From Psilocybe cubensis (lineage: Eukaryota): a stretch of DNA of 64,000 nt. The position numbers and the translations under genes are program-made. This document shows positions 1 through 62,421 of the stretch, piece after piece. The stretch lies in assembly GCA_017499595.2 (NCBI GenBank), contig CM039005.1:1488001-1552000 (forward strand). Direction: 5' to 3'. How positions within the stretch are numbered: the first letter of the stretch is position 1; every line of letters begins with the position of its first letter. Below the pieces are notes generated by a model. The model had not been told where the DNA came from. It saw only the letters and a list, made by a program, of their open reading frames with translations, and made no database searches.

Positions 1-811
1 AGTAACGACGATAGTCAGTCTTGATCAAGCATGATCGAGACCTTAGATTGGGGTTTGTTTCTAAATAACCAATCACACATGAGGCTGACCAAATCTGGAA
101 AAAGGCTTGCCACTGTGTGCCATCAGTCATCCTTTCAACTTTCCAACCCGATTCCAACCCGCCTTTCTTTGAGGTTTCTCAGCACAATACATACCATCTA
201 CACACACCATGCAAATTGGCTATTCCATGTTCCTCAAATCTTCGTCAATCTCAATCATCGAGGGACAAATATAGAGAGATAGGGAAGCATGGCTAAATCA
301 ACCAATCGTGAGACGTTACCGGGTTGTCAGCCCACGCCCACTCAATTTGATCCAAACTCGTCAAAGCGGCAGCGAGCAAGATGCAATCTGGAACGAGATG
401 ACATATGAAGGAGGTGAGTCAAGTTCATATTCAAACAGACAGTTTAAGTCTGACACTACTTAGTACCAATGCAACGCGAATAACAGTGCTGGCTGCAGTA
501 TCATGCGTTTCGGGGACCATCTGTTAATAGATTACTACCTCTCGGCATCTTGTGGCTCTCAGCTTCTGCATCACATAGAACGGTCCAGAATTCAATCGTG
601 CGGTTTTTCAAGTTGGATTCTCCACCAATCACGCTGTCGGCCCCTTATCGTCCGATGCCCTTTGTGAATCCTCGTGTGTGCTTCACCATGCAAGGCCACA
701 TGACTACCTTGATCCATTCGATAGCACTAAGCGCCCACATCTCTTTGTTCTTCCCCGTCTCAATCTGCTATCCAACTGCAACCATATACACCTCACAGCA
801 ATTCGAGTACA

Positions 812-3800
812 ATGGCCTCAAGGAATCGGAAGAAATGTGACTTCTTCGCTCGTGGAAACTGTCGAAAGGGAAATCAATGTAAATTCATTCATGACAACCC
901 GGCACCAGCAACTCCTACGCCCACGACTTCACAAGCCACTGCCAGCCCTCGAGGTGCGACCAGCCCGAGATCTTCTCCATCTGCACCCCGTCAAGTCTGC
1001 AACATATTCTGGCAAAGTGGCGCATGCGATCGTGGTTTTGATTGTTCATTCAAGCACACCCGTAACCCACAAGCAACGCATACGGCATCGCGCTCAGCTA
1101 TCAACAGTGACGAAGACCCGCCTGATTTCTATTCCATCGACGGGCTCGTTCCAGATGGCCGTGAACGAACGCAACGAGGAAGCTACGACCCTGCGGAAGT
1201 CCACAATCATATCAAACCCTTTTTGAAGGATAATTACACTTTTGAAGGACCAAGAAACATTGAAAGTTTTGTTCGAATCATATCAAGCATCAATGATCAC
1301 AATAAAAGCTGGGTGCGTTGTACATGTGGTGCCTTAGAAATGCTGCGGCTGACTGAAATCGTTGACTTGTTCCAGAATACCGATAATGCTCAGGCAAGTT
1401 GAAACTAGTCTTTTACAACGCTTGCTTCATACCTATAATCGATCCAGGCTTTTCTTTCCCTTCTAGTCAAGGTGGCGCTATTAAATGTCTATCCTACCAT
1501 GTTATTAATATGTCTACAGGACAATGGTATTACCCGAATTGGAGAGATACTGCGCTTCAAGCCTGTCGATGACTGCACGAATGTTTTTAGAACCAGTCTT
1601 TCTTTCCAACGCGGTTATTTTCCTATTCTCGAGGTATATATTATCGGTTTTCTGCGATATGCAAATGAAACTCACATTGAACAGTATCTATCGTCAAGTC
1701 TTGTTCTGAAAAGTACATGGCACAAGAATATCAAGTGAATGACTCATTTTCACTGTGACGTGTGCTCAAATCTTAAATATATATAGCCATTTATATACAG
1801 TTGTCGAGGACAACTACGATGATTTACACGCTGTTGTCGATTCTTGCATGAATTCCATGATCAAGCGAAACTCGTGGAGGGATCCGGGCTCAGCTGCAAA
1901 CCTCGATGGCGCGAACGTATTCAAAACACTGACCACTGTCTTTCTTCAGTAAGTCGTTTTCATATACGTCAGTTATATAGTGTTGTTATCATTCCCCTCT
2001 TAGATATTTCAATCGCTTCAAAAGCTCAATCCGTAACCATCCTGAAATTGTCAACCTCGTGCAACATCTTACAGAGTGGTTTGATATTTGGGTTGCTGGC
2101 GTGATGACGAAATCGCCGGTGCTCTTTGAGGATCCAATTACCGACCTTGATCCTCGCCGTCGAGGGTTAATCATAGATCAAATTCACGACGATATCAATC
2201 GATTAGTCACGATTGTTCAAAGAGAGTCAGACCATGCTACTGTTCTTAAGCGACACACGTCTCGCCCTGCAGTAACTGTGGCGCAGCGGCGCAATGCCGA
2301 AATCATGCGCCTTGGGCAAATCTATGATCCCCCTGGTGAACTTAGACCAGAAGGTCCCAGGCATGACAATGACTCCATTGATATTGCTGATATACGAATC
2401 GCTCCTACTCAAAACGAGCTGCTTTGTGAGATTTCCCCATACCTTCCCGCCTTTCTTCCCGAAGCCCAGCATCACTGTCTGCCAGATTCAATGGAACGTC
2501 ATCTTGACATACAATTTCGTCTCCTTCGCGAAGAGTTGATGTATGTTGCTTACATTTATTCGTGACCTGGTTGAGGCTAACGATAAATTTGTTCTTAGCT
2601 CGACAATAAGGTCATCTATAAATGCCGTTTATCAAGATCTTCGCGAGATATGGGAATCTCCTGGACAGCGTCGAGATACAACCAAACTTGAAAAGTTACT
2701 TTCCAAAGGCGGTGGAGCATACAGGACCACTGGTTTAGATTCTGTTTTTTTCATGATTTATGCCAATGTTGGTTTTGCTCCTGTTCGTGCCGAACGCCGT
2801 GACCTTACGGTTGGGCTTTTGATCGACCCACCCGCAGGAGCTGCTCGTGATCCACAGGCATCAAAACGAGTTGCATATTGGAAAAACAGCAGGCGCTTAC
2901 AAGGAGGCGGACTGGTCGCCCTTCTTGTTGTTTCTAACAAAACTTTAAAGGTCTATCTTGGGGTTCTTGCATCCTTCGGCGACGATATTGCAGAGTCGTC
3001 AAAGGCATCTGCAGAAAAGGTTCAAGTCAGGATCACTTTCTTTGATCCAGAAGTAGAATTTCGCGCTTTGAAAAGGGAGAAACTTTCAGGAAGCTCGTCG
3101 TCGTACGCGTTCCTAGTTGATGGTTCCGTTATGTTCGAAGCGTCACGGCCATTTTTGGAGAGACTTCAAACCATCGAGCCCACAGAAATTCCCTTTGGGA
3201 ACTACATTTCTTCCAGCAATTCTCTGGCAGACGTTCAAGTCAAACCGCCTCGCTATGCCACCAACCCAAGATTTAAGTACAACCTTCAATGTTTGGCAAA
3301 AGATCGTGAACATCGAATCTCGGACTTGGATATTACTCGACCCGATGCAGTAAACCTTGCCCGTCACCAAATGCTTGAATCCAGCACTCTCGATCCCTCT
3401 CAAGTTGATGCTGTAATCAACACATTGACAAGAGAGGTCTCCTTAATTCAAGGGTGTGTCTAAAGTTCATATACCGTCGTCGTAATTCTAATAACAAAAT
3501 CGTTTCGATAGACCACCTGGAACTGGAAAGGTGACCTATATTTTTTATTATGTCATAAGTATGCTGACTTTGGTTAATTAAAGAGCTTTACTGGTCGGGA
3601 AATTCTGCGCATTCTTTTTGCCAGCAAAGTACGGCCTATTGGTATGACATCATAATTTGTTTAACATATTTTATAACTTACACAGCTTCTAGTTCTAATT
3701 GCTTACACCAATCATGCTTTAGACCATTTGCTGAGAGAGGTTCTCGATGTAGGGATTACCAAGAGGCTGGTGCGCTTAGGCTCTCGTTCATCCGATGAAG

Positions 3801-6800
3801 TTGTCGCAGAATACACCTTGGACAAGCTGGAAAAACTTGCCGAAAGATCCTCCCTACAGCGCTCGATAGGGAAACAATATGCTGTCATGAAGAGGTTGGA
3901 AGAAGATATGAGTCGAGTTATGGAATCCATTCAACTACCGAAAGTTTCTGCTCAACAGGTCGAAGATCACTTAGATATCCATTTTCCGCAAGCATTAAAC
4001 GTGTTATTGTCACCTCCTTTCTGGATATCACAGCTGGCTGAAACTTTATGGGCGGATGAAGATACAAACGGAGAGTGGTCCACTGTTCGTGGCAAAGGAA
4101 AGCAGCAGGCTGGGGACGTTGTCTCACATACATTCTACGATTTCTGGAAGACGGGTGCAGATATAGCCTTTCTGGCTCCAGTTTCCATGGCGCACTCGCC
4201 GATGCCTACACCTGGCAAAAAAAAGAACAGAGCGGCTAAATCACAAGGGACTACAGTGCTACAAGAGGACCCAAAAGTTACTCGATTCTTTGAAACACTT
4301 GAATTCGGTAACAATCGACCGCAGATACCCGATCAGAATCGACCCCTCACTCGGCTTAGAAATAGCGAGGACTTGTGGAAAATGTCGTTGCAAGAGAGGA
4401 CACGATTGGCATTGGCCTGGGAAGAGGACATTCGTGTTTTGGCTTACAATATAAATCTGGATCGGTACAATAGTCTTCGGGAAGACTATAAAGAAGCATG
4501 CAAAGAATACAATGATATAAGAGATGAGGTATGTGTCTTTTCACTTTGATCATAGATTATTTTTCATAACGAACATTTCACGTCATCAGACCCGCCGGCG
4601 ATTACTTAGTTCTGTTGACCTTATTGCATGTACAACAACTGGTTCGTAAGGTTATTGCGTTCACTTGAGATGGTCCGCGACATTAACGAGGATGATTTAG
4701 GGGCCGCAAAACTCACTTCGCTCATTAATGTATATTATTGTCACTGACTCGCACTGTACGTTGTGATATACTCACTTTTTTCATGCTAGAGCATTGCTCC
4801 ACGTGTTTTGATGGTTGAAGAGGCTGGTCAGGTTCTTGAAGCACATATTTTAACGTCCCTTGTCAACTCAAGTATGTGTTTGCTGCTCTCTGCCTAAAAC
4901 CACATAGCTTACTGAAATAATCAATTTATAGTCCATCATCTCATATGCATTGGAGATCCTCAACAACTTCGCCCAAGCCTTGCGACTTTTGGTATGTTCA
5001 AATAATCCCAAATTTGCAAATACGATAACACTCTGTTATGACTGCAGGTTTATCAATGGATAGCGAGCGGGGTAAACAGCTTTTCAAATTTGACAGGTCG
5101 CTCATGGAAAGACTTGCGGATTCTGGTCTTCAGATGACGCAACTCAATGTTCAACGTCGGATGCGACCAACTATATCTCATTTTATTCGGTATGCTTCTA
5201 TTGCTTTCAATCTGATCTATAGTGTCTTAGCATAGCCCAAAGACGTATACTTTATCCTAACTTGGAAGATCATGACATTGTCAAAACATATCCATCAGTC
5301 AGAGGGATGCAAAAGGACGTCTATTTCTTGAATCACATCCATCCGGAAGGTGGATCAGAGGACTCGGTATCGAAGTATAACACTTACGAAGTGAGTGGAA
5401 TGTTTAATTTTATATATTACAATTCTTAAGGTAATTCCAACCAGGTCCAAATGATTCGCGATCTCGTCCTTTACTTTTTGAAGCAAGACATGTATAGCGG
5501 TCCAGGGGATATTGCTGTTCTTTGCGCATATTTGGGCCAGCTTCAGAAAGTACGACAGGCACTCAAGGATTTGAAAATTGCTGTATCAGTTGACGAAAGG
5601 GATGAAACCCAACTTTTACAACAAGGTTTGGAAGAAGAAGGTGCATTCGAGGAAGTCGTTGTGGCCAAGCACGTAAGCATTCGTCGGATTCCAATTTTGG
5701 GTTAGCCTTCATATCAAAATTTGTCAGATTCGTCTTGGCACAGTGGACATTTACCAGGGGCAGGAGGCAAAAATTGTTATTGTCTCATTGGTGCGAAATA
5801 CGGGCAACTACGACACCAAGTCAGCGTCCATAGGATTTCTAAAGGTATTTATTATAATTTTTAAGTTAAATATTCTCTGAACACTTTGAAGAGTTCAAAT
5901 CGGATAAACGTAGCGCTATCCAGAGCTAAGCACGGCATGTATATCATGGGGAATGCATCTAACCTGCGTAAAAACACAACATGGTCAACAATTCTGGACG
6001 ATTTGGAGGACCAGGGGCTTATTGGACAAGGCTTTCCAATTATATGTGCGCGACATCCCGACCAGGTCAATCTTATATCAAAACCCGGAGATCTTGGTCA
6101 GTATGCTCCTGAAGGTGGATGTCTACTACCCTGCGGATATCAACTAGACTGCGGACATATATGCCCGTCTGTGGTGAGCAAACACGGATTTTCTACTCAA
6201 AATTATAGTATCTTAATGCTATTGAACCTTGAACAGTGTCATATTACGCTTGACAATCATCGTAGCATGTATTGCCACGAGCCATGCAGGAAGACCCCAT
6301 GCCCTCGTGGCCATCCATGCCCAAAAGAGTGCTCGGAAAACTGCGGTGATTGCATGTTCCCAATCTACGACGTCACCCTACCTTGTAGCCATACAGAAAA
6401 AAAAGTTCATTGGTCAGTGTGCTGAATTTCCAACAGCGCATACAATTGCTAATTTGATCCATAGCTACCTTCTTGAGAAGCTTGATTCGGTCAAGTGTCC
6501 AAAATTAGTGACGAAAAAACTTCCACGATGCGAACACTCTGCTCTAATGCCTTGCAGCAAGGATCCCGCATCCTACATCTGCAAAGAAATATGTGGTGGT
6601 ATCATGGGTTGCTGCTCAAAATCATGCAAATCTCAATGTCATCAGTGCCAGACAGCAACCAAGGTTCTCGTTACTGGCGATCCTGTTATCGGTCACAAAT
6701 CTAGTCCAACAAGGATCAATCGTACTTCTCATTATACTCACCCATGTGATCGTCCACTCTATTGCATGCACCCATGCGGCAAGGCTTGTCACCCAAAGGA

Positions 6801-8903
6801 TAATCCTCCATGTAATCCCGCCTGCCAACAGGCCTGTCGTCAGGAATGCCTTCATCAAAAGTGTAAGAAGACCTGCTCCTCCGTTTGTCCTCCTTGTATG
6901 GAACCATGCACTTGGAACTGTTCCCATTATACGTGTCCTGTTACATGCGGGTCGGTAAGTTGGCTTCAATGTTTAAGACTCAATCTTTCAACTCAATTCC
7001 TACCAAAAGATTTGTACACGCCTGCCTTGCGATCAACCTTGCAGGGAAAAATTAACGTGTGGTCATCCATGCCCTTCAGGTAAATCAAACTCTAATATTA
7101 TATATATATTTGTACGTTTACTTACAGTGGACATATATCAGTTTGCGGCGAAATTTGTAATCAGCAGATCTGTGTGCTGTGTCTAGAAACAGATAAAAAG
7201 CAAGAGGTTGTCGACCTCGTCATGCAACGGCGACTCGATGAATTAGACCTTAGCTCCGATGACATTTCGGAAAGGCTAATTACGCTCAAATGTGGTCACA
7301 TCTTCACCGTGGAAACCCTAGACGGGGTTTGCAGAATGGCTGATTTCTACGAAGTGAGCAATGACGGAACATACATTCGAACCAAAGCTCCTCCTGTGGA
7401 ATATCAAACACCACCCACTTGTCCACAGTGCCGAAGTTCTATTACTGCTCTCCGTTATGGCAGAGTCGTCAAACGCTCTATGCTTGACATCCTCGAGCAG
7501 AATGTGGCGAGCAATATGTCGCGTGATTTGGAGCTTCTTGGACCACACCTGGAACATGTTTCGAAGTCATTGGAGACATTCAAAGAGAGAGCGAAAACCA
7601 TAACCCCTGATACCACTAATCTTGGCACTATCTCACAAGCTCGAAAAACTGACGCGATTGAGAAGCAAGAACCGATTTCAAAAGCCTTGCTTGATCTTAA
7701 TGCCATGAATTCAATACATGGCCTGTCCCCGCAAGAGACTAGAATTTGGAACACGATTGTAAAACCAATTCTGGATGCATATTCAAGGGCTCACAGCATA
7801 GCAACGACCCAAGGAGCACATGTCAAGGCATATGAAGGGGCATTTTCAACATTGTATCGCCTTGAGCTCGATACCTTGATCAATGATCCTTCCGTAGTAA
7901 CCGATGCTCCAGAGCCAATGGCTTTGCGCGCTGTGCAGATGAACATTGGTCAACCCCCTCCTACAGCCGATAGTCGTTTCCAAATTGAGGCGTACATTCA
8001 TACCCTTGAATTACGTTTTATGCTTGCCCAAGTCGGCCTTGCGCGTCTCGATGGTTTGAACCCAGCTGCGACGGACGAACTTTCCAGCAAAGAAAAAAGA
8101 CATTGGAAGGAGTTCATTGGGTTCATATATGAGACATGTGTGGCTGACTCTAGAAAAGCTTTAGCTATTGCGGAGAAGTCTTCAGCATCTCGGAGAGCTG
8201 CGACATCCAAGGTTTTCATGATAAGATCTGACTTCGAAAGAATACGGTTTCAGACAACAATCGGGATGAAGTCTCTTAAGGTATCCGACCCCACGTTTGC
8301 AGAGGATCGTGAGCGTATAGCCCAACAGGTCTCCGACACAAGAACTAGCGTGGAGAAGCAACTGCTTGAATACGAAAGGGAGTATATCAGAAGCCGACCT
8401 ACTGGGAACAATATACGGAAGTTGAATGAAGAGAGGAACTGGTTCAAGGAAAACTGCGCAATAAAGGTCCAGCGGTTTATCGATGAATTGAATGATTTGG
8501 AAGCATGGGTCAAAAACGGGACAGTGTATGAGCCGCTTTCACACAACGAAATGGAAGATATCGTAAAAGCCTTTAAGGGCAAATTTTGTGAGTACCCAGC
8601 AACATTCAACATACTTTGCGCTGAAATGCTCCACAATCTTTAGTAACTACTGGTCATTTTTACAATTGTCCAAACGGACATCCATTTGTGATCACAGAGG
8701 TACGTGCAACTTCTTTTTACCGAGTTGATAATAACATGGAGCTTTGTTTGAAGTGCGGTGGTGCTATGCAAACGTCTGTCTGTCCGGAATGTGGTGAAGC
8801 TATTGGAGGAGGGTCTCACAGGTTGCTTGACACAAATACTGTAGATTCACGTTTCGAAGGAATCCTCAGGGATATGGGCATCACTGATCGAGGTTTCTAC
8901 TGA
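812..8903 (+). CDS. ZNFX1: ZNFX1/NFX1-type zinc finger SF1 RNA helicase with N-terminal CCCH fingers and C-terminal RING-like and RZ fingers (about 25 introns)
   Basis: Two CCCH fingers (CDFFARGNCRKGNQCKFIH; CNIFWQSGACDRGFDCSFKH); ZNFX1-type RHDND and HLDIQFRLLREE motifs; spliced Walker A QG|PPGTGK|S; TNHALD; VEEAGQVLE; IGDPQQLRP; QRRMRP; TVDIYQGQE; NRINVALSRAKHG; Cys/His-rich NF-X1 repeats (about 6120-7170); CGHIFTVETLDG...CPQCR; RZ finger HFYNCPNGHPFVITE|CGGAMQTSVCPECGEAIGGGSH. Confidence 0.92.
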
Positions 8904-9199
8904 CATAGACATTGTATCTCATGACAAACGTAGTCTTATATTTCTCAACCAGGCGAAACGATAGTTTAAATAAATAAATCTCATATGCAAGGAAGCTCAC
9001 GTACCTTGTACTGAATCGCGAACAATCGCAATAAAATAGGGGCATATTTGCCACTGACGCTAAATGCAAACAAACGGACCGCGTCGGATTTGGACTGCGG
9101 GCCCCAAGCGTGATTTTCTTCCTGCCATTTTTTCAAGGTCGATTCTTGTTCAGCCTCAGCGTCATCGACCCCAGCACCACATAATCCTCGTTTACAATA

Positions 9200-10518
9200 A
9201 TGCACGCCGCAGTCACCCCAAAAGCTTCATCATCAGCTCTTAGAATCCTCAGAAGGGACTTTACTCGAGTGTCATCTTGTCGACGGCTCGTAACGGTTGT
9301 AGCTGGTGCTGGCCCCGTTGCCGGCAAAAGCTCATCGTCACCGTGCAGGAAGGCTAGCATTTCTCTATCTAGACCTTCCACCTTGCAACATATCATATCA
9401 TATACACGTACACCGAGGCAACATCTTCGCAGGTCATATACTACAACAGCAACCGGCGCAGCACCATCATCTCCCGACACTTCCCCCACCCAACACGAAT
9501 ATGAACCAGAACCAGAGTCAGAAATAAATCCCATAACATTCGCTGACCCTCATCGCCCCGACCTGTTCTACCATTACACTCCCGCTCCAACGCCACTCTC
9601 ACGCGTGCTCCCGGCCTTCGCCCTGTCATATTTGGATGCTCTTCCCCCTGCTAGTGCTGCTGGCGGGGAGGGCTCCGAAGCAGTGATTGGATGGCTTCCC
9701 GCACAGACGATTGTTGAAGGAGAAGTGGAGGGAGAGGCAATACAGGGAGAGGGGCAGGGTTCAACATTGGACGATTTCATGGGGAACGGTAAGTCTTGTA
9801 TTCAATTACCTCTCTGTTTGAGCGCGCAGAAAGTGTGGCGGGGTGCGGTTTATGCTGCCTTGCACCCCACCCTCTCTGTTTATCTGAAAACAAGTAAATT
9901 CTTAACTGATTCTCTGATACCGATACGGTGAAACAATAGACAAATTTCTCTCCTTCCTGCACGCCACCATCCAAACTGCACTTGAGCAGGGACAAGACGA
10001 TATTTGGAGAGATGCCGCTATTGCCCATGGGAATGGCTGGATGCACATTGGCGGTACGTCTCTTTGCTTCCATTCCTTAAACCTATTCCAGTTCCCTGAA
10101 CCGAGACCCCATTTGAATACGGGTGAAAACTCATGTTTTATTTTGTCTATGTATGTGTGGTGAACAGATCAGCGGAATATTCCAGCACTAGGACGCGTCG
10201 GTGATCCAGACGACATATTAGCATCTGTGCTCGTACAGGATGGAAAGGTGAATGATTCATTGACAATTTCTCTTCACATCGCTCCCTTTCAAGCCACCTC
10301 CAATAACTCCCCAGATCCATGACCGTGTACTAACCTAACAATTTATTCCCTCTCCAAACACCCAGATTGTACCAGGCACATACCAAGCCATGCCTTCATA
10401 CCGGATATGCACCGTCGATGGGGTGTTGCAGCTCACTCCCGGACTCGCCGGATGTCTTAAGGAAGCCTTGGCCCAGTCTTGGGCCGCCGCCGCTGCTGCT
10501 GATGCAGACCAGGCGTAA
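9200..10518 (+). CDS. Conserved fungal hypothetical protein, possible mitochondrial presequence (4 exons)
   Basis: Arg/Ser-rich N-terminus lacking acidic residues; spliced continuation GWMHIG|DQRNIPALGRVGDPDDILASVLVQDGK|IVPGTYQAMPSYRICTVDG ending at TAA 10516-10518. Confidence 0.75.
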
Positions 10519-11627
10519 CCAGTGGGATGAGCACCTTAAAACCTGGAGCTAAAAGCTGACGTGATTCGAAAATGTCGGTAACCGGACTCAAATGGCAAAC
10601 CGGCGCTAGTGGCAAATGCAGACACTCACAAACTTGATTTATCAGGTCGGTTAAAGCACCATACGCGCATATATGCGGTCGTTTCGTCCACACACAACAA
10701 GTATTATGCGCAACCCGGTATCAAATTAAAACTCTGAGTCATATATGTCGATACGTGTAAAAGCAAAGGGCATTAGAGTCGTTTGTAGAACCTTGTCGTC
10801 CAAAACCACCCGGGAGAGCAGAGGTTGAGTGGAAAGTTTGTCAGCGCGATGTACAGCAGATCTCCACATTCAAAGGTTTACTGGTGTCGAGTATATGCGC
10901 GGCGATGCCCTCTATTCCTCAATTGTGGAATGCCGTGCCAATTTAATGTTCTAACCTCCTAGCACCTTTCCTTTGTACGTGGCGGTTTTCTTGAGGCACG
11001 AGCTTCATGGTAACCCTTCGCCTCTGCCCATCCAACGAGACTTCAGCTAGCTTACTTTGATGCTGCACAGCATAGACCCTGGTGTGTACGCATGTCAATG
11101 AGACGACGACATGCACTTTATTATTGCCTTGGGAAGTCTGCCCAGTAGATCAGTGCCGTTAATTAAATCTTAATTTCTTCGTGTTTGTTGAGAATATTGC
11201 ACTCTTTTCAGAAACGATCAAAACTATAGGGATAAGGAATGTCCGCGTCATTGATTTGGACCCGAATGCCAGAGGAGCAGGCCCCCGATGCCTGGGCAGT
11301 AAATCGTGCACCGCAACCTGTGAGCTCAAATCTGAACGTCTCTTTACTTTAAATTATGGGATCGCACAATAACAGATGTAGTAAAGTCAGAGGGGTATTT
11401 GTCGTTAATAGTTGAATCATTTCTCTCGACGAGTGACACGATGAACCCAGAATGCACATTTAGTCCAGAATAGAAGCCTTGAAAAGTATACAATTTCGAT
11501 TTCCTATCAAAACAAAGAAATCCATAACAATTCCAAGCTTGTATCTGAGATTGAACGCTGCACACAAATCTTGCACAGTCGCTTAAAGGACCCCGACGTT
11601 GACTTAAATGTTCTGTTTTGCCTCAGA

Positions 11628-29753: not shown

Positions 29754-32054
29754 ATGCGTTTTCTAAGCGGCATTGTTGTACTTCTATGGGGACTCCAGAC
29801 CTACGCTATCACCATAGGTCCCTCCGCTAATTTATACATCGGCAACAAAGTCATAGCTCCGGATGGAAATAAGCGCTCGTAACACGTTCACTCCTCTTCC
29901 CACCGAAGTTTGTGTTGACGATTCATAGGACCGTTTTGGCTGGGGCATCGTTCAACACCCTGTCTTTTCCAGGACCTGTAATCCGGGCAACAAAGGTCTA
30001 TCTGTTGATTTATTCACGAGCAGCGGACTGACATTGATGTGCATTACCTAGGGCGACACGTTACGGATCAACGTAGTGAATCAGTTAACCGATACCACCA
30101 TGTTAACGGGAACCAGCATCGTAACAATCCTCTTCTTACCCTAACCTTCGTACTATCTGAGGAATTATTTAGCACTGGCACGGCTTACACCAAAAAGGAA
30201 CCAGCTGGGCCGACGGTGTGGTCGGTGTAACTCAGTGCCCTATCGCTCCGGGCCGCTCTTTCTTGTATCAATTTCCCACGGCCAATCAAGCTGGGACTTT
30301 TTGGTACCATTCTCACTACTGTGCGTGTGCAACGCCAAAAATTGGCGAAGGTGTTATTGATGAAGATTTTATATAGCTACGCAGTATTGCGATGGCCTCA
30401 GAGGCGCTTTGGTTGTTTATGACCCAGCTGATCCATACAGAACCTGGTGAGTTGATTGATGCCATTCCGAGCTGCATCTATGTTGACGTATGTAGGTATG
30501 ATATCGACGACGGTAAGACTTGTGTTCCTGAATCGTGGCAGGGTAGATGTTGTTGAACTTTTATTTTATCTACAGAAACTACAATCATCACCCTTGCAGA
30601 TTGGTGGGTCCTGAAACACATTACACTGCCGTACCATTCAAATTGACTGCGTATCGGGATGAAGGTATCATAATGTTGCCCATTTAGAGCCTCTTCCTGC
30701 CGAAGCAGACTCAGTTCTGATCAACGGGAAAGGTCGTGTCGTTGGCGGATCTGCTTCTCCGCTAGCGGTCGTAATGGTAATTCCCAACAAACGTTATCGT
30801 TTTCGTCTGGTTTCTATCTCGTGCGGTCCTGCGTTCACATTTTCGATTGATGGACATCCTATGGTAAGCTTTGCTTTAAAACTACCACAATCATGAATAT
30901 TAATGTGCTCTATGTTGCATATACCGACAATAGACTGTTATAGAAGCCGACTCTCAGAGCGTGCAACCTCTTACGGTTAATGAAATTGTCATTTTCGCTG
31001 GTCAACGATATTCCTTCATTCTTTATGCCAATAATCCAATCGGAAACTACTGGATTCGGTCCCAACCCGATGAAGATGCTCCAGGGGGCTTCGAGGGAGG
31101 TGCCAACTCTGCCATACTGCGTTACTATGGTGCGCCCACCATCAACCCGACGACATCAAAGGCTTCCGTTTCAAACCCTCTGATCGAGGCAAACCTCCGG
31201 CCTCTCTATAATCCTGCCGCTCCGGGAATTCCACGACCGGGAGCTGCAGATGTCAACATCAAACTAGATGTCACTTACAATGAGCAAACAAGGAAATTCT
31301 TTATCAACAATGCCACCTTCACAGAAGTCCGCGTTCCGGTGTTGCTTCAGATCCTCAGCGGAGCACGCGCAGCGAGTGATTTGCTCCCCAAAGGAGTGGT
31401 GTATAGTCTCCCTCCTAACAAAGTCATAGAGATATCTATGCCTGGCGGCAGTACTGGAAGTCCGGTGAGGCTTTTCTCAATCAAGATTGTATCATATTTA
31501 ACTTCATGTTTACCCGTTGTAGCACCCTATGCATTTGCATGGCGTATGTGGTAAACTTTTATATGCTTGACATTCCTGATCATTCTCTATAGCATGACTT
31601 TTCCGTCGTGAGGAGTGCAGGTAGCAATCGCTACAACTATGTCAATCCAGTCAGGCGCGACGTTGTCAATATAGGCCGACAAACTACAGACAACGTTACC
31701 ATACGGTTCACGACCGACAACGCTGGACCTTGGATTCTGCACTGGTGCGTTTGCTGAATTCTAATCGCCCTTCTACGTTCTGACAAATCATCCATTAGCC
31801 ATATTGACTGGCATCTTGAAGCGTAAGTCTCCATGCTTGTCAATCGAGTACTTTCCTAATCAGATCACTTCCTTTATCCAGTGGTATGGCGGTTGTATTT
31901 GCAGAAGATTTCCAATCCATCAAACTCAGCAAGCCTCCCCGTATGTTCATTCCATAGCTGTTATTAAAAGTCCGTGACTCAGTTGAACTCTACAGCTGCT
32001 TGGGATCAGCTTTGCCCTACCTTCAATGCTTTGCCTCCTCAAACATTCCATTGA
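29754..32054 (+). CDS. Laccase (AA1_1 multicopper oxidase), multi-exon
   Basis: Signal peptide [18 protein letters not shown]; copper motifs [30 protein letters not shown]-terminus [18 protein letters not shown]. Confidence 0.95.
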
Positions 32055-35454: not shown

Positions 35455-37958
35455 TCAATAGCCGCTGTGTGATTTGGGCACCGCGTGCGTCTGCCCAGGG
35501 TGGCCGGAGTATTTCTCGTATTCTCCGAACACCTGGCTCCTGCTCCCAATCGACGACGCCCTATTGTCATCCATATACGGTGCATTCAAGTTGGCCGAAG
35601 ATGCCCAAGGGTCCGATGTATCGTTGTATTTGCCTTGCGCAAGCGGGACAAAAATGCCCGACTCGCCTTTGTGCGATGTCCAGCCAGCGCCGGCGGTCGG
35701 AGAGAGCGGGTAAGCCTTGCTCGGTGCAAGGCATGCCGACGCGCGTCTGCGCCAGACGGCGAAGAGCACGCCTATCACCGCAACTATAGCAATTCCCACG
35801 ACAATAGCGCCTATGATGAAGCCGAGGTTGTGGGACTTCTTCGCGTCACCGCCTGAGCCGCCATCCAAATTCGATGTACCGTTCTGCCCAGGGTGCACGC
35901 CCCCTGTCGCCGAGTCGAGGCGGACGCTTGCTGGGAGTGCGCCAACTGGTGAAGTTGGTTGTTTCTCGATGTTTCCGCTGCCGACAATGACATACGAACC
36001 GTTGCTTGGTATTCCGTGGATGGTGACATACAAAAATGCGGGTCCTGGCTGGAAGATGTTGGGAATGGGCGGCATCTGCGACACATGGAGCGTTATAGAT
36101 CCGCCCTTATTTACAGTGTATGTATTGTTAAGCTGCAAAAATCGTTGTCCCATATTCATGCCGTGCGTAGTAAACCCACCACGGATGACGACAACTGTGG
36201 TATTGTCTGCAGCATCATTTGATGAGCCCGAGTAAGAGGTCGAAGGGATCGTAATGTCGAATGGATTGCCACCGTATGACAGTGTCTTTGGGATACCTGT
36301 GGGCACAGGACGAACACTGGCACTGAAGTAAGGAGGGAAGAAAATCTCTGCGCGATATTCGGTAGGGAAGACAGTTGTTAGATTTACATCGGGATTGGGA
36401 TTGGATCCGGCCACCAGGACGGATGCGTCTGGGAGAAGGATAGCAGAGGAATGATACAACCGTGGTATAGGTGAAGGAGATAATCCTTTGTTAGACCATC
36501 TGCTTCCGGCTGGTGCGTTTGGGTTGTAAATGGCTGGCGTGAAAACAGGGCCAGATGCTAATGAAACCCCAAATGGCGTCTCCTTAATGAAGGGGTCGGT
36601 TGTGATATTGAAATACCCAGCGGTACCATTGAGTCCCCCATTAATCATCAACAGAGTTCCATCCGGAAGAATTATAAATTGTCCCATCGTTCGTGTCTCG
36701 AGCATGTTATCGTCCGCTACATAGACTGGTGCTGATCCGTCCTGTGGCTCTGGAGTAATACGTTGGCAATCATTTGAAGCAGGTATTTTCCAGGTTTCAA
36801 CACGAGGGCCACTATAGCTACCATAATCATCGTCCGCCATTGTTGAGCCTCCACAGAAGATGATGGTTGGGTTATAGTTGTTGGCTGGAGTCAAAGGGAG
36901 CATTGCAGCACCACCAGAGGCAGGGTACACCCGAACAACGCCATTGGGCATATCTGGTAGGGGTGTCTGAGTGTTTGTTGTATGGTCCCAAATCACTTCA
37001 GAAATCGGTCAAAAGGGTAGTTAATGTAGAAGAAAGCAGATATGCGCACTGGAAGAACGATTAGCTTGGACAAAGATATTTCCGGAGGGCATCAAAAACA
37101 TGTGTGCGTATGCATTTAACCCCCCTGCATCGACAAGAAACTGAACTAATTGTGGATCGGCATCTTTTGCAGGATAATACTCGTAGGTACTCTGCGCTTG
37201 CGTGTTTTGCGTGATGGGATCCCTAACTGGAAATTCTCGATTGACATACCCACCAGCAGTGAATCCGCCGAGAATGACAATGGTACCATCTCCTAAAGGT
37301 TCAAGAGCTGCGTACCACCTGGGTGCCTTCATTGCTAAAACCGACGAGTCATCGAACCATTTACATTGTGGGGAGGTAAAATCATCGCCAGATCTGCAAG
37401 GATTAAGAATACGAATCGATTTTCGTCCGTCAAAATCTTGGTATACTGCGTCCCAGAATCCTGTACCTGTTCCGTCCGTATTCTTTGTTGAGCCAGGTGC
37501 ACCGTTTATCGTGATACCGTCGTTTCCACCCAAGTTGATGAAGGAGCCATTGGGCAAATGCATCCCAGAGGAACAAAACGTATTTGATCGAATATCCATC
37601 ACCTCTGCTTGTTGCGAAGCTATATCCCTGAAGATGCAAAATGTCAAGCCGGTGGCAAAAAAACTCGATTGATGCGCACGGATCTCACCATTTCGATCCC
37701 CATGCCGGATGACCTGCAACTGCAGCTGCGTTCCCCTCAGCCTTGTCGATAATGTAGACCGTGTCTTCATTCCCCAAAAACATCTTGCAACCAATCGAGT
37801 TTGACACAGAGCGGAGAAAAGTGTGCAGTGGATGTACTTACCAACAGTGCGCTGACCAGTGTATTACCGGCCTGGGTAAATGAGCCAGCGCTGCTTGCTA
37901 GCACGGTCGAAGACCCCAGCAAGAGAACCGCAACGGATATTCGCGGCGACAAAATCAT
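35455..37958 (-). CDS. Copper radical oxidase / glyoxal oxidase family (AA5_1, CRO2-like) with C-terminal transmembrane helix
   Basis: Signal peptide MILSPRISVAVLLLGSSTVLA; NTFCSSG, RWYA, RLYHS and GFTTHG active-site motifs; TM segment GFIIGAIVVGIAIVAVIGVLFAVW followed by RRR and a cytoplasmic tail. Confidence 0.92.
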
Positions 37959-39342: not shown

Positions 39343-41635
39343 TTACGCCCGAACCTGCGCAGCTCCCAACTGATTCTCCACATCCCCCATCGGTATCTGC
39401 TGTTGTTGCTGATGCGCATTCCCCCCGCGAGAGAAGCTTAACGCCCTCAAAAACCCTGTCGGCCGCAACGCCCCACTCAACAGACCACCACCTCTCCCTG
39501 CTCCAGTAGTTGTCTCTGCACCAACCTCGCCCGTCGGCGGCGTATAGTTCACGTCGAGAACTGTATCTCCCGTTGTTGCACCTGCATTGGGGCCAAGAGG
39601 TAAAGTGGGCGAGAGAAGACCACCTTCGTCTTCTGTCCCAGACCCTTCACCTGATTCTTTGCCCAAGGACGCAGAAAGCGGTGGCGCAGTGGTGGTTAGT
39701 CTGAGCATTGATGTATACGCTACATGTGTTTTTTTATGATTAAATCTATCAATGTATATTTTTAGCGACACCGAGAAAATGCACTCACGTTGTCGACAGA
39801 CGGGACAGAACCAGCCCTTGGCCTTCCTCTTTCTCCTTGGGTTTGGAGGAGGATTCGGCGTCGCCAGTGCAGCAGCAACAGCCGTCGCCCCAGTCCCAGT
39901 CTGGGTCCCCGTTCCTGTCCCGGTAGGCGCTTCATCACCACCAGTCACTGGCTCAACCGTTTGGGTGATGTTGCCCCCAGCACCAAACTCAACCATGTTC
40001 AATGCGCAATCTTTGCATGCTACGAGATGGCGGCACGGCAGCAACACAACTTCGCGCGGGGATGAAAGACAGAGAAGGCACTCGGACTGGGGATCATCGT
40101 CTTCTGGTGTTGCTGCTGTGATGGGGGGTTTCGTTTCGTCAGGCGGATAGGTATGTGTGGATGGTGGAGCAGGGAGCGGGGCAGTTTCGGAGGCGGAGGC
40201 GCTGTGAGCAGATGAGGATGTGAGGCCGTAGATTTCGTGCAGGTGGAATGTATGCGGTCCAATCTAGACAAAGTAAGCCAAGAAAGCTCAAAATATAACG
40301 TAGACCTACCGTAGCCTCGCGCTTCACAACCCTGACAACCCACGGTCGGGTGTCCTCAACGGGCTCGCCACCATCAGTTGGCTCAGCTGCACGTTGGCCA
40401 AACCTGACGATGTGCAGATATGTTGTCTGCTCGTTCAGCGCTGCAAGTTCAGTGCCTTGTTCGTCCAACGCCGCGAGCCTGATAGTAATCTTCACACCCT
40501 CCTCCGGCTCGTCTTTGCCACCCTCTTTGCTCTTCCCATCCTGCGCAGCCCCGGCAGGCTCTGCGTCAACAACAGCAAGCGCTGGTCCAGAAATGCTCCT
40601 GTTATGTTCCGAGCGCGGTTTACGGAAGTGGAAATGCGTGAAGCGACGATGCCGCGGGTTGGCGCGACTCGATCCGCCTTCAGCAGCTCCATTCGAACCC
40701 TCTCCAATCGCCGGCAACGCTTCCCCCGATGTCTGCGCACCTGCCTGAACATCCTCCGGCCCCTTCGTCGACGCACTCGAGTGGGTGTGTTCGAACCTCC
40801 CCAGCTCTAGAAGTGCTCCCTCCTCAAGCTTTAGTTGTCGTCCAAACCCACCCTCAACGACTGTCTCAAACACCAGCAGCTTCGCAAGTGCATGGCTCGT
40901 CGGCATCGATGGCGCATCGGGGTGAGTCTTGGGCAAGTGAACATGCACGTAGATGCCGCACTTAGGAGCATCACAGTCGTACTCGAACTCGAGTCCGTGG
41001 TGGTGCTGCTCAGGTGCCGGGGTGGTGTTGTCGTCAGTGACGGAGGTGAGGGGTGAGAGACGGAGGGTCGGCCGCTTGAGGTTCACGAGCGCTTGAAGCG
41101 TCGTCGTCGGCTGGGAAGGCTACATGATGACGGACGGTGATAACAGTGAGAATAGATACATCACACGGGCAAAAATCACAGATGGGATGGTGATGTCGAG
41201 ACGGGAACAAACAGGCTGCAGCACGACTCACCTCCTTGCTCTTCTCGATCCAGAGATTCACAATTTCCTGCGTGAGCTCATCCGTGACGACCTTTTTCTC
41301 GTTCGACAGCGTCCATGCGGGGCCATTGCTGACAGCGCCGATCCCAGGTCCAAATAACGGCTCGCCCGACCTTTTGTCCTTCCCCACGCCATCCAACTGA
41401 CCTTCCTGCGTCTGCTGGGCCATTGCGTCCCTGTTACCGTTTACGTTATTCGCTGCTGCGGCCTGAGCCTGTGCTGGAGAGTGTCGCTGGAGGCGGTTGC
41501 GATTCCAGGTCTCGTACTGCCGACTGTCTGTGGGATTCGAATGTCAAGGGACGTGGGTGGGTATTTGTATATATAAGCTGCGGAAAGAGGTATATAGAGT
41601 CAAAGAATGGACCTACACCAATGTGCTAAACTCAT
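39343..41635 (-). CDS. MGRN1/RNF157/LOG2-like RING E3 ubiquitin ligase
   Basis: TLQALVNLKRPTLRL, LEFEYDCDA, VRVVKREAT|IGPHTFHLHEIYGL, ECLLCLSSPREVVLLPCRHLVACKDC...CPVCRQ; predicted N-terminus MSLAHW|YSRQYETWNR. Confidence 0.85.
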
Positions 41636-62272: not shown

Positions 62273-62421
62273 AGTGGATAGGCTGTGAGCACGACCAGCG
62301 GGCGATGATGGAGTAGGTGTAAGGAAGCCAGAAACAGCCAGCCGCATCTTATCTATGTAGTCGTGTGACGTGACAGGGTATATTCACCGTCACGGATATT
62401 TTGCACTGTCTGCGCAAGTCT

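Follow-up and report, generated by a model that had tools for sequence, protein, structure and literature searches.

Among the closest described systems is Hrr1 of S. pombe, a protein of about 1000 aa. According to 10.1101/220111, Hrr1 and Neurospora SAD-3 are homologues of ZNFX-1, placed in RDRC and MSUD, and both, like C. elegans ZNFX-1, are tied to small-RNA silencing. Hrr1 is also named, in 10.1101/2025.10.14.682297, as the closest sequence homologue of the 1C insertion (residues 688-978) of human ZNFX1. For the human protein, the domain scheme in PMC13710534 gives residues 1-140 as disordered, followed by ARM, helicase, ZnF and E3 parts, and an RNA-ubiquitylating activity is mentioned there; its mechanism is treated in section 8 of 10.1101/2025.09.05.674436 and sections 11-12 of 10.1101/2025.10.14.682297, section 11 listing C1849, H1853, C1860, C1869, C1872 and H1881 as RZ residues. 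As far as the cited literature describes the human Z-RING, Arg is the optimal linchpin residue, and the MYCBP2 structure served to align the domain (Squair preprint). Cryptococcus Znf3, required for RNAi and transposon silencing, is described as a protein of 1561 aa unique to its genus, with three zinc-finger domains (C2H2 in the 2013 text), NLSs, a coiled coil and a putative RNase domain (PMC3744442, PMC4778953).

The locus presented here lies in a 64,000-nt stretch of Psilocybe cubensis DNA, the whole of which is referred to as the window. Exon structure was obtained by splice-aware alignment of P0004 (Laetiporus sulphureus LAESUDRAFT_366011, 59% identical to the window protein), P0002 and P0016 to the DNA, positions 1280-1560 being resolved by eye, and by translation. 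The 25 introns of the model are 47-63 nt long. Features are as follows.

812..8903, + strand: coding region of the ZNFX1-type gene (26 exons, 25 introns, 2233 aa; ATG at 812, stop codon 8901-8903)
600..811, + strand: 5´ leader, from the spliced contig
8904..8992, + strand: 3´ untranslated stretch, from the spliced contig
1313-1375, 1394-1447, 1472-1519, 1634-1684, 1735-1786, 1949-2003, 2541-2598, 3454-3511, 3531-3583, + strand: introns 1-9
3642-3692, 4529-4589, 4642-4700, 4730-4789, 4872-4931, 4992-5047, 5190-5242, 5391-5444, 5673-5727, + strand: introns 10-18
5845-5891, 6174-6236, 6413-6464, 6955-7009, 7080-7141, 8588-8643, 8700-8753, + strand: introns 19-25
1394..1447, + strand: GC-AG intron (GCAAGT...CCAG), chosen by homology, adjoining the 18-nt exon 2 (1376-1393)
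3512..3530, + strand: 19-nt micro-exon of the model, Walker A core (PPGTGK)
836..892, + strand: CCCH finger 1, C-x7-C-x5-C-x3-H, aa 9-27, by Pfam zf-CCCH
998..1057, + strand: CCCH finger 2, C-x8-C-x5-C-x3-H, aa 63-82, by sequence pattern
2452..3451, + strand: pre-helicase region, aa 440-753, with FRLLREE motif and a ZNFX1-domain-like stretch, by sub-threshold Pfam match and homologue alignment
3693..4528, + strand: exon 11, aa 780-1058, motif Ia followed by the large insertion that precedes motif II, by the model and alignment of P0004 with 9q9z_A
4811..5930, + strand: helicase motifs II-VI, exons 14-20, by the model and AAA_12 fragments in Pfam
4811-4831, 4952-4975, 5152-5163, 5740-5766, 5901-5930, + strand: motifs II (VEEAGQ), III, IV, V and VI
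6120..7170, + strand: Cys/His-rich stalk, aa 1421-1693, NFX1-type by homology to human ZNFX1
7171..7476, + strand: RING-like "Z-RING/Miz" domain, aa 1694-1795, by conservation, AF2 model and fold matches
7477..8541, + strand: all-helical linker from the RING-like domain to the RZ finger, aa 1796-2150, by AF2 model of exon 24
8539..8831, + strand: RZ finger (PF20173) with preceding helix, aa 2150-2210, split by introns 8588-8643 and 8700-8753

A single contig of 7096 nt from the public run X1 covers positions 600 to about 8992 with introns skipped. The kind given for this run, "RNA?", is a guess of the tool; we read the contig as mRNA because it is intron-less. Seventeen of the 25 model introns are seen in it directly (15 joints listed, two of them double), the double joints carrying the 18-nt and 19-nt micro-exons as letters in between, and for the other eight the summed length equals that of the model exactly, judged by where the listed pieces lie in the record. 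Run X2 of the same study has ten of the 15 listed joints. Exon-2 letters stand between 1312 and 1445 in the contigs of both runs, confirming the GC-AG intron, and the Walker A micro-exon is present in the X1 contig between 3453 and 3580. Run X3, from another study, has its kind given as "?" and was regarded as genomic DNA; its contig follows the window colinearly, introns included.

Upstream, position 94 of the X1 record corresponds to 600 and the contig reaches about 93 nt further, while its downstream end was computed from the total length and the correspondence of position 6801 to 8587; neither transcription start nor true 3´ end can be read from these ends. The leader contains an out-of-frame upstream ORF of 61 codons (ATG 655, stop codon 838-840) overlapping the main ATG, and the 3´ untranslated stretch contains a AAATAAATAAAT run near 8966-8977. 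The limits that the earlier note had assigned to the gene proved exact, and the CCCH and RZ exons, whose absence from a common mRNA it had named in advance as refuting its reading, are joined in the X1 contig. The locus is evidently an intact, transcribed gene. One mRNA of it encodes two N-terminal CCCH fingers, after which come a UPF1-like SF1 helicase and a Cys-rich stalk; these are followed by a RING-like domain, which a helical linker connects to the RZ finger at the C-terminus.

Native composition (GC 0.40-0.48 across the gene), ordinary metabolic and signalling neighbours (glyoxal oxidase, laccase-like, kinase) and good coverage of the contig in a culture-type run, although contig depth cannot rank expression, would all suit a housekeeping factor of RNA quality control or stress granules, acting on cellular mRNAs like many CCCH proteins and taking no part in defence or silencing. 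Lineage-specific multiplication of the family is unusual for such factors, however, and fits conflict genes better: Lactarius indigo accounts for six entries among the 120 matches listed, and three family genes lie on one contig in Volvariella. Moreover, the sole characterised member with full architecture is, in the sources cited, an interferon-induced antiviral protein. We therefore regard a purely housekeeping role as improbable.

Judged by sequence, the gene product is a ZNFX1 orthologue of non-animal type, in line with the family assignment of the earlier note, and human ZNFX1 is its best solved relative. Exon 20 matches the human chain 9q9z_A, aligning through its first finger, with E 1.7e-21, whereas the best UPF1-type chain, that of yeast Nam7, reaches 1.5e-5, and P0004 matches 9q9z_A with E 9.1e-97 in three significant stretches over residues 525-1450. 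The sister sequence in the tree is P0001 (Psilocybe cf. subviscida D9619_007516), 62% identical overall. Hundreds of fungal and oomycete genes in databases share the CCCH-helicase-RZ design, which is standard in Basidiomycota and is also found in a chytrid, a blastoclad, an ascomycete and oomycetes. Sources name these orthologues "NFX1-type zinc finger-containing protein 1", "C3H1-type domain-containing protein" or "RZ-type domain-containing protein"; tremellomycete counterparts exist as well, e.g. Kwoniella IAU59_003625 (P0257). Annotated orthologues (P0001, P0004, Paraphysoderma sedebokerense BKA69DRAFT_1113975 (P0345) and Phytophthora oleae V7S43_009487 (P0356)) have the same domain order and a similar length (about 2000-2300 aa), differing from the window protein in sequence divergence only. 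A literature search found no activity, RNA-binding or phenotype data for any fungal member.

Many deposited orthologue models are without micro-exons or whole regions, whereas the window model is backed by a spliced contig. In the P0001 model the whole Cys-rich stalk is absent from the alignment, and gaps occur at four of five Walker A columns checked in 12-15 of 120 homologues.

CCCH finger 1 is recognised by Pfam zf-CCCH (E 1.8e-8, 34.5 bits, cut-off 20.5). Finger 2 gives sub-threshold Pfam matches only (PF25584, E 0.0041) and is defined by pattern and conservation, its four ligand columns being kept in 104-105 of 120 homologues. Two fingers are thus present, as had been claimed; since they stand 35 residues apart, the term "tandem" applies loosely. 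At least one CCCH motif occurs within the first 200 aa of 102 of 120 long homologues and two motifs in 60 (regex search), and N-terminal CCCH together with C-terminal RZ is also found in Paraphysoderma, Physocladia, Geosmithia, Phytophthora and Hyaloperonospora. Although the earlier note saw the fingers as an addition, they are peculiar neither to this gene nor to Agaricomycetes.

The pre-helicase region matches PF25396 "ZNFX1" below cut-off (E 0.015; 15.7 bits against 27). Its counterpart in P0004 aligns to human ZNFX1 at 525-851 and, non-significantly (0.0 bits), at 422-475; the window exon alone found no PDB match by phmmer. The complete set of SF1 motifs, as previously noticed, is present in the translation and conserved in 102-118 of 120 homologues (motifs II-VI in 112-118). 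Exon 11 has no Pfam match.

In the stalk, 47 Cys and 17 His occur among 273 aa. The HMM search recovered zf-CCCH (finger 1), AAA_12 fragments and RZ, and, with the threshold relaxed to E<=5, Pfam zf-NF-X1 still found no match in the Cys-rich exons. The "NF-X1 repeats" of the earlier note therefore rest on the Cys/His counts and on alignment to the first fingers of human ZNFX1.

The next segment, by its predicted fold, is a RING-like domain corresponding to human Z-RING/Miz, which agrees with the first reading of the sequence. Its candidate zinc-site residues C1734, H1736, C1777 and C1780 (C-x-H...C-x2-C) occupy columns conserved in 118-119 of 120 homologues, and the linchpin position is R1781, with Arg in 113. 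L1709 (Phe in 94 of 120 homologues, Leu in 14) is a probable E2 contact, equivalent to human F1575 by position only. The AF2 model has pLDDT 92.6. All 41 Foldseek matches listed are RING-type E3s or RING-containing complexes, each weak (E>=0.055), and the top VIA-align matches are APC11 (Z 5.4) and MYCBP2 RCR-RING (Z 5.0), in a range (Z<=5.4) that is common by chance according to the tool. The assignment follows from the consistency of the list, no single score carrying it. In the linker, long helices are predicted (exon 24 model, pLDDT 93.3, pTM 0.89); it found no PDB match by sequence and no informative one by Foldseek (best E 0.062, designed helical proteins).

The RZ finger matches PF20173 with E 1.1e-19 and 70.3 bits (cut-off 27). 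It is interrupted by the in-frame 54-nt intron 8700-8753, which splits ...VITE|CGGAM... where the earlier note had placed an intron. By spacing, C2174, H2178, C2194 and C2197 would be the zinc ligands and C2185 with H2206 the catalytic pair; the arrangement C-x3-H-x6-C-x8-C-x2-C-x8-H is the same as in human ZNFX1. The finger was rightly called apparently intact, and the helicase and RING-like modules look intact as well. As far as the cited human sources define them, the residues needed for both E3 activities of human ZNFX1 appear to be all present or conservatively replaced.

Might the RZ and RING-like modules be relics, kept as zinc-binding structure in a protein that is merely a helicase? 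RZ columns are conserved in 107-113 of 120 homologues and the catalytic His in 92, less than the zinc ligands; the probable E2-contact residue is Leu instead of Phe in the window protein, and C. elegans ZNFX-1 is described as devoid of an RZ finger (section 12, 10.1101/2025.10.14.682297). Yet the catalytic Cys, which is no ligand, is kept in 111 of 120 homologues, the remaining nine being gaps without a single substitution, the spacing is identical to that of the human active site as described, and the Arg prevailing at the linchpin is the residue reported as optimal. We consider such a decay highly improbable.

Most likely the protein is a two-module E3 helicase that is activated by RNA and serves RNA surveillance or silencing. 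As a whole, the data are best explained, with reasonable probability, by a ZNFX1 orthologue having a human-type RNA-relieved E3 mechanism and a role in RNA surveillance. By analogy with the human enzyme, nucleotide-dependent binding of single-stranded or structured RNA to the helicase would relieve autoinhibition, the RING-like domain would dock a UBE2D-type E2~ubiquitin, and ubiquitin would be discharged directly (allosteric route) or passed to RZ Cys2185 with His2206 as general base (transthiolation route). The enzyme might then ubiquitylate itself or bound ribonucleoprotein, the RNA becoming clustered or marked. The CCCH fingers would most likely provide a second, sequence- or structure-selective RNA contact recruiting the enzyme to its targets. 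In the cell it probably serves cytoplasmic RNA surveillance, i.e. silencing of transposon or viral RNA, and this is the least secure step of the explanation. Mycovirus or transposon defence and RNA-stimulated ubiquitylation, as proposed by the earlier note, are extrapolations from human ZNFX1; because Hrr1 and SAD-3 are described as RNAi proteins that have neither the zinc fingers nor the E3 part, silencing could be the role instead of "immunity".

The protein could instead be mainly an RNAi cofactor like Hrr1, SAD-3 and C. elegans ZNFX-1, marking transcripts and aiding small-RNA amplification by RNA-dependent RNA polymerase against transposons, with the E3 modules serving only its own turnover or condensates. 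Such a role overlaps the preferred explanation in mechanism and differs in the pathway served. Besides the reported placement of Hrr1 and SAD-3 in RDRC and MSUD, it is favoured by the exon 11 insertion, which lies at the same place as the expanded human 1C insertion, the one said to have Hrr1 as its closest homologue. In the present family, however, stalk, RING-like domain and RZ finger are strongly conserved, arguing that the E3 part is central, and RdRP, Argonaute and Dicer were not seen among the 13 window ORFs scanned, where linkage is not expected anyway. We find this possibility rather unlikely, and retain the RNA-relieved E3 enzyme of RNA surveillance as the preferred reading.

Compared with known systems, Znf3 shares with the window protein only that both are zinc-finger proteins. 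The earlier note listed it as a ZNFX1 relative; in PMC3744442 and PMC4778953 it figures as a C2H2 protein, "helicase" occurring in other contexts only, and being described without helicase, CCCH or RZ, it is no relative. RNF213 has, by description, a zinc-stabilised RZ finger in which a Cys that is no ligand acts as nucleophile and a His as general base, PF20173 covering both proteins; it is otherwise a giant dynein-like AAA+ protein whose RING is canonical and has nothing beyond RZ in common, and phmmer of PDB with the window RZ stretch did not reach its chains. Hrr1, SAD-3 and C. elegans ZNFX-1, compared by description, belong to the same helicase lineage; unlike the window protein, the first two are described as lacking a zinc-finger domain (10.1101/220111) and the third, as mentioned, the RZ finger.

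From human ZNFX1 (PDB 9q9z; 10.1101/2025.09.05.674436, 10.1101/2025.10.14.682297, PMC13710534), as described there, the window protein differs by two N-terminal CCCH fingers. The human scheme, which begins with the disordered residues 1-140 and then ARM, is consistent with absence of CCCH from animal ZNFX1. It further differs by a loop of 40 instead of 25 residues between C-x-H and C-x2-C, and by Arg instead of Gln at the linchpin. At 25 residues ahead of C-x-H it has Leu, most homologues having Phe there; human F1575 stands 16 residues ahead. In both proteins the SF1 helicase is UPF1-like, with a large insertion separating motifs Ia and II, and the Cys-rich finger stalk follows motif VI immediately. 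Each also has a RING-like domain that combines a single zinc site (C-x-H...C-x2-C) with a linchpin residue, and an RZ finger at the C-terminus in which the four ligands and the Cys/His catalytic pair are spaced identically.

When positions 1-11000 were read from stop to stop, successive open pieces appeared on the + strand between about 731 and 8903, with the frame changing along the way, as in fungal genes whose short introns are numerous. A minimum-intron path from the ATG at 812 to the stop at 8903 produced long false introns and skipped small helicase exons, and homology-guided models were used instead. With the largest exon as query, 126 long proteins were found at E<=1e-5 among 8000 scored candidates, and 120 were taken as the homologue set. 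Three homologues were then aligned to the DNA by splice-aware dynamic programming, and the three alignments concur on 22 introns from 1634 onward. The region 1313-1519 was read by eye as containing an 18-nt exon, a 24-nt exon and a GC-AG intron. With the Laetiporus sulphureus homologue (P0004) as guide, the alignment placed a 5-nt exon and a GT donor at 1398; the GC-AG intron at 1394-1447 was preferred, since it brings back the conserved 'AFLSLLVK' and contigs confirm it. In the final gene model, 26 exons with 6702 coding nt encode 2233 aa, and the 25 introns measure 47-63 nt.

Small exons and GC-AG intron of the gene model
1376-1393, + strand: exon 2, 18 nt, its letters present in contigs
1394-1447, + strand: GC-AG intron (GCAAGT...CCAG), junction confirmed by contigs of two runs of one study
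1448-1471, + strand: micro-exon, 24 nt, from the gene model
3512-3530, + strand: micro-exon 9, 19 nt, carrying Walker A, from the gene model and contig letters
4701-4729, + strand: micro-exon, 29 nt, from the gene model

Five public runs cover the stretch. None is recorded as RNA, splicing is read solely from intron-less contigs, and contig coverage shows neither transcript ends nor expression level. In run X1, a single 7096-nt contig extends over 600 to about 8992 with introns removed. Fifteen joints are listed for it, two of them double skips in which the 18-nt exon 2 and the 19-nt exon 9 can be read; 17 introns, including the GC-AG intron, are seen directly, and the remaining 8 joints are fixed in sum by record coordinates, which match the exon lengths (5352 at 7138; 4335 at 5889). 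In run X2 of the same study, shorter contigs show 10 of these 15 joints; in run X3 of another study, taken as genomic DNA, a contig of 11,817 nt follows the window colinearly and keeps the introns. The earlier note had named joint splicing of the CCCH and RZ exons as a test of its proposal. Since the single intron-less X1 contig spans the CCCH exon and both RZ exons, these lie in one spliced molecule, and the gene passes that test. A pseudogene or mis-assembly is ruled out by the frame open across 26 exons, by the spliced contig and by the colinear DNA contig of the other study. A tblastn search of the model against the 64-kb window matched only the gene itself.

The leader contains one further reading frame.

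655-840, + strand: upstream ORF of 61 codons, ATG 655, further in-frame ATGs at 688 and 700

This frame overlaps the main ATG at 812 out of frame; since the spliced contig covers it, it could dampen main-ORF translation. Within 1866-8445, 23 single-base differences separate the window from the X2 and X3 contigs and one more is common to all three runs (8094 A>T), which points to different strains or alleles of a single organism. No indels are listed.

Other ORF pieces in the window and their matches
30934-31551, + strand: multicopper oxidase (laccase-like)
35455-37860, - strand: glyoxal oxidase with galactose-oxidase E-set domain
39343-40260, - strand: C3HC4 RING finger
61337-62380, - strand: protein kinase

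Such neighbours are typical of agaricomycetes that decay wood or litter; none has an evident tie to the ZNFX1-type gene.

The spliced translation contains all seven motifs (I, Ia, II, III, IV, V and VI) of the UPF1-like SF1 core: GPPGTGKS, VLIAYTNHALD, VEEAGQ, GDPQQLRP, QRRM, TVDIYQGQE and RINVALSRAK. The complete motif set claimed from the raw sequence is borne out by this translation. The motif columns are kept in 102-118 of the 120 homologues, and Pfam adds AAA_12 fragments on four helicase exon pieces. Exon 20, which runs from motif VI to the first Cys-rich finger, matches the human ZNFX1 chain 9q9z_A at E 1.7e-21, and Nam7/UPF1 chains at 1.5e-5 to 7e-4, the best being yeast Nam7 (1.5e-5). 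The Laetiporus homologue aligns with 9q9z_A at E 9.1e-97 in three significant stretches over residues 525-1450, compared with 5.7e-28 for Sen1. Judged by these alignments, the window protein is nearer to ZNFX1 than to other UPF1-like helicases. About 280 aa between motifs Ia and II are encoded by exon 11 (aa 780-1058), which has no Pfam match. Human ZNFX1 has its large 1C insertion at the same place, flanked by the stretches 525-851 and 1007-1256 to which the Laetiporus protein aligns; the two insertions correspond by position. With regard to an N-terminal ARM-repeat domain, aa 100-440, spread over seven exons, gave no Pfam match, and no significant alignment with 9q9z_A begins before about residue 520. 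Exon 8, in the pre-helicase region, found nothing in a PDB sequence search.

At the N-terminus, profile search of the exon pieces identified a first CCCH finger at aa 6-28 (PF00642, zf-CCCH; E 1.8e-8, 34.5 bits against a cut-off of 20.5; PF16131 and PF18345 also passed), in agreement with what had been noticed by eye. A second, at aa 63-82, has the C-x8-C-x5-C-x3-H pattern with sub-threshold Pfam matches only, and is kept in 104-105 of the 120 homologues. By regular expression, at least one CCCH occurs within the first 200 aa of 102/120 homologues and two in 60/120, counts that are probably lowered by N-terminal mis-annotation. Human ZNFX1 is described in the available text of PMC13710534 as a disordered N-terminus, ARM, helicase, twelve ZnF and E3 module, with CCCH unmentioned there.

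How widespread is this combination? An exhaustive search with exon 24 yielded 812 representatives at E<=0.001, ten among the most distant belonging to Rhizoctonia, Serendipita, Volvariella, Mrakia, Kwoniella, Cutaneotrichosporon, Sporobolomyces, Ceraceosorus, Pseudozyma and the glomeromycete Ambispora. RZ was present in 21 and a CCCH match in 7 of the 23 full-length representatives scanned. Of 5025 candidates from a search seeded with the Ambispora protein, 1612 reached E<=1e-10; among the best 120 of these 1612 are many Glomeromycota and Mucoromycota as well as chytrids, Tuber, Xylaria, other ascomycetes and oomycetes, and 8 of the 120 carry precomputed CCCH families. Six of these eight were rescanned, and all six have CCCH within the first 72 residues plus a C-terminal RZ, Paraphysoderma, Physocladia, Phytophthora, Hyaloperonospora and Geosmithia being represented; examples from Tuber, Jimgerdemannia and Rhizophagus have RZ without CCCH. 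The CCCH-helicase-RZ design is thus old, widespread and already annotated under generic names, and is no peculiarity of this locus. No animal-named ZNFX1 occurs among the named rows of the best 150 exon 24 representatives or of the best 120 Ambispora-seeded matches, which are fungi and oomycetes only.

The nearest relative in the tree is the sister protein from Psilocybe cf. subviscida, with 62% identity overall. Midpoint rooting groups the window gene with Psilocybe, Sphaerobolus, Clathrus and Cyathus, which disagrees with the species tree. The deposited model of this closest homologue (P0001) is devoid of the whole Cys-rich stalk, and at four of five Walker A columns checked in the 121-sequence alignment, 12-15 of the 120 homologues have gaps. 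The deposited models of relatives frequently seem incomplete, probably because automatic annotation overlooks micro-exons.

Some lineages are multi-copy. Among the homologues listed, at least six entries are named Lactarius indigo and at least four each Lactarius deliciosus, Leucoagaricus sp. SymC.cos and Desarmillaria tabescens. Three Volvariella volvacea genes (AX16_002435, _002437, _002444) share one 60,604-nt contig. Rhizophagus irregularis accounts for about seventeen 90%-identity clusters among the matches listed, with strains pooled, so that this is no copy number. In Agaricomycetes the RZ-bearing ZNFX1 genes seem to fall into two or more paralogous lines of old origin, with Daedalea quercina (P0005 and P0373) and Dichomitus squalens (P0022 and P0351) as examples; the second line, of about 2300-2370 aa, was reached only by the Ambispora-seeded search.

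Behind the helicase stands a stalk with 47 Cys and 17 His in 273 aa. For the NF-X1 repeats proposed in this segment the evidence is divided. The Cys/His count speaks for them, as does the alignment to human ZNFX1, which enters the first finger with exon 20 and reaches human residue 1450 with the Laetiporus protein, and two regular-expression matches to the NFX1-type pattern were found; against them, Pfam zf-NF-X1 gave no match at E<=5 on any Cys-rich exon. The human comparison ends with the PDB chain at 1451, before the later fingers.

The claimed RING-like segment, between stalk and RZ finger, is upheld by its conserved ligands and by a uniform, if weak, list of RING matches. It contains C1734-x-H1736, C1777-x2-C1780 and R1781; the four ligands are kept in 118-119 of the 120 homologues and the set including R1781 in 113-119. 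The Z-RING/Miz domain of human ZNFX1 has C1591, H1593, C1619 and C1622, linchpin Q1623 and E2 contact F1575 (10.1101/2025.09.05.674436; 10.1101/2025.10.14.682297). Its single zinc site, C-x-H...C-x2-C followed by a linchpin, has the same elements in the window protein. A conserved 'VDF/L' lies 25 residues upstream of C-x-H, with Leu here (L1709), Phe in 94/120 and Leu in 14/120 homologues. L1709 is the probable E2 contact, assigned as the counterpart of F1575 by position only. An AF2 model of the first 119 residues of exon 24 alone has pLDDT 92.6. Every match that Foldseek listed for it is a RING-type E3 or a complex with a RING in it, but each is weak (best E 0.055), and VIA-align against 48,161 chains ranked APC11 first (Z 5.4), then the MYCBP2 RCR-RING (Z 5.0) and afterwards almost solely RING domains. 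The MYCBP2 RING served as template for the human Z-RING in the Squair preprint (10.1101/2025.09.05.674436). The assignment of the predicted fold as RING-like is carried by the uniform match list and the conserved ligands together, not by the scores alone.

The AF2 model of the whole exon 24 (481 residues; pLDDT 93.3) begins with a small domain rich in beta structure, after which long helices take up about 350 residues.

7477-8541, + strand: helical domain of about 350 residues, predicted by AF2 with very high confidence, between the RING-like domain and the RZ finger

For this linker, neither the sequence search with exon 24 nor Foldseek of the whole model (designed helical proteins, E>=0.06) gave an informative PDB match; lack of a Foldseek match does not make it new.

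The RZ finger matches PF20173 (ZnF_RZ-type) at E 1.1e-19 (70.3 bits, cut-off 27); translation across an in-frame intron splits the match in two. It reads C2174-x3-H2178-x6-C2185-x8-C2194-x2-C2197-x8-H2206. The human RZ has zinc ligands C1849, H1853, C1869 and C1872 and the catalytic pair C1860/H1881 (10.1101/2025.10.14.682297), and the spacing of ligands and catalytic Cys/His is identical in the two proteins. The finger, described beforehand as apparently intact, looks so here too. Ligands and catalytic Cys are kept in 107-113 of the 120 homologues, the catalytic His in 92. The predicted helix preceding it (model residues 467-478, aa 2151-2162) carries I2157 and V2158, with I in 104/120 and V in 99/120; human I1835, in the ubiquitin-binding helix, lies 14 residues before the first Cys and I2157/V2158, the candidate counterparts, lie 16-17 before it. 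The sole PDB sequence match of the RZ stretch, a PRDM9 C2H2, was judged spurious.

An older statement that fungal ZNFX1 orthologues have no zinc-finger part (10.1101/220111, in its available text) fails outside model ascomycetes, given the present family. The RZ finger has been traced only 'back to choanoflagellates', the available text leaving fungi unmentioned (10.1101/2025.09.05.674436; 10.1101/2025.10.14.682297). Judged by titles and the opening lines of abstracts, the papers listed on ZNFX1, RZ, Hrr1 and Znf3 include no description of a fungal CCCH-ZNFX1-RZ protein, and a supplementary 185-species alignment (Figure S3) may include fungi. What the earlier note observed has stood, and so have the ZNFX1-type modules in its interpretation. 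The CCCH fingers that it described as added RNA recognition are not peculiar to this gene, and the kinship that it stated with Cryptococcus Znf3 has not stood: Znf3 is no ZNFX1 relative, and in the available text of PMC3744442 and PMC4778953, 'helicase' appears only in other contexts.

The E3 parts, the helicase and the key residues are present, conserved and co-transcribed. The mechanism of the fungal protein is most likely that of the human enzyme, from which we extend it by analogy. Binding of RNA by the helicase, helped by the CCCH fingers, would activate the enzyme; the RING-like domain would dock E2~Ub, and ubiquitin would pass straight to the substrate or via Cys2185 of the RZ finger. 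The chains so formed would cluster the bound RNA-protein complex or label it, and would also govern turnover of the enzyme itself. The pathway served may be antiviral, anti-transposon RNAi or general RNA surveillance.

A bolder proposal, which we consider unlikely, is that N-terminal CCCH fingers are ancestral in ZNFX1 and were lost by animals, non-animal ZNFX1 proteins being single-chain 'sensor plus effector' immune enzymes. Foreign RNA, from viruses or transposons, might then, though we doubt it, be selected jointly by the helicase and a ZAP-like CCCH reader, and be ubiquitylated and sequestered by the two built-in E3 modules. It is similarly improbable in our judgement that an arms race with mycoviruses and retroelements left its footprint in the repeated lineage-specific expansions of Lactarius, Armillaria/Desarmillaria, Leucoagaricus, the Volvariella cluster and the many Glomeromycota clusters. 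If the ancestral-CCCH proposal is true, ubiquitin-based RNA quarantine would date to or before the opisthokont root and be shared with stramenopiles.

Taken singly the locus is ordinary, and its value lies in the family as an experimental target. For fungal biology, this is a concrete candidate for RNA-directed ubiquitin signalling in mycovirus control, transposon silencing and possibly cross-kingdom RNA. To our knowledge, work on ZNFX1 as a two-module ubiquitin ligase concerns the human protein only. Recognition of ZNFX1 as an RNA-activated ligase of this kind in human antiviral immunity is recent (10.1101/2025.09.05.674436; 10.1101/2025.10.14.682297). Beside it, the present locus stands as a spliced-contig-backed example of basidiomycetes retaining the complete ZNFX1 machine together with CCCH fingers, a combination that the database survey also found in five fungal phyla and in oomycetes, and offers ZNFX1 biochemistry a natural variant with an added RNA reader.
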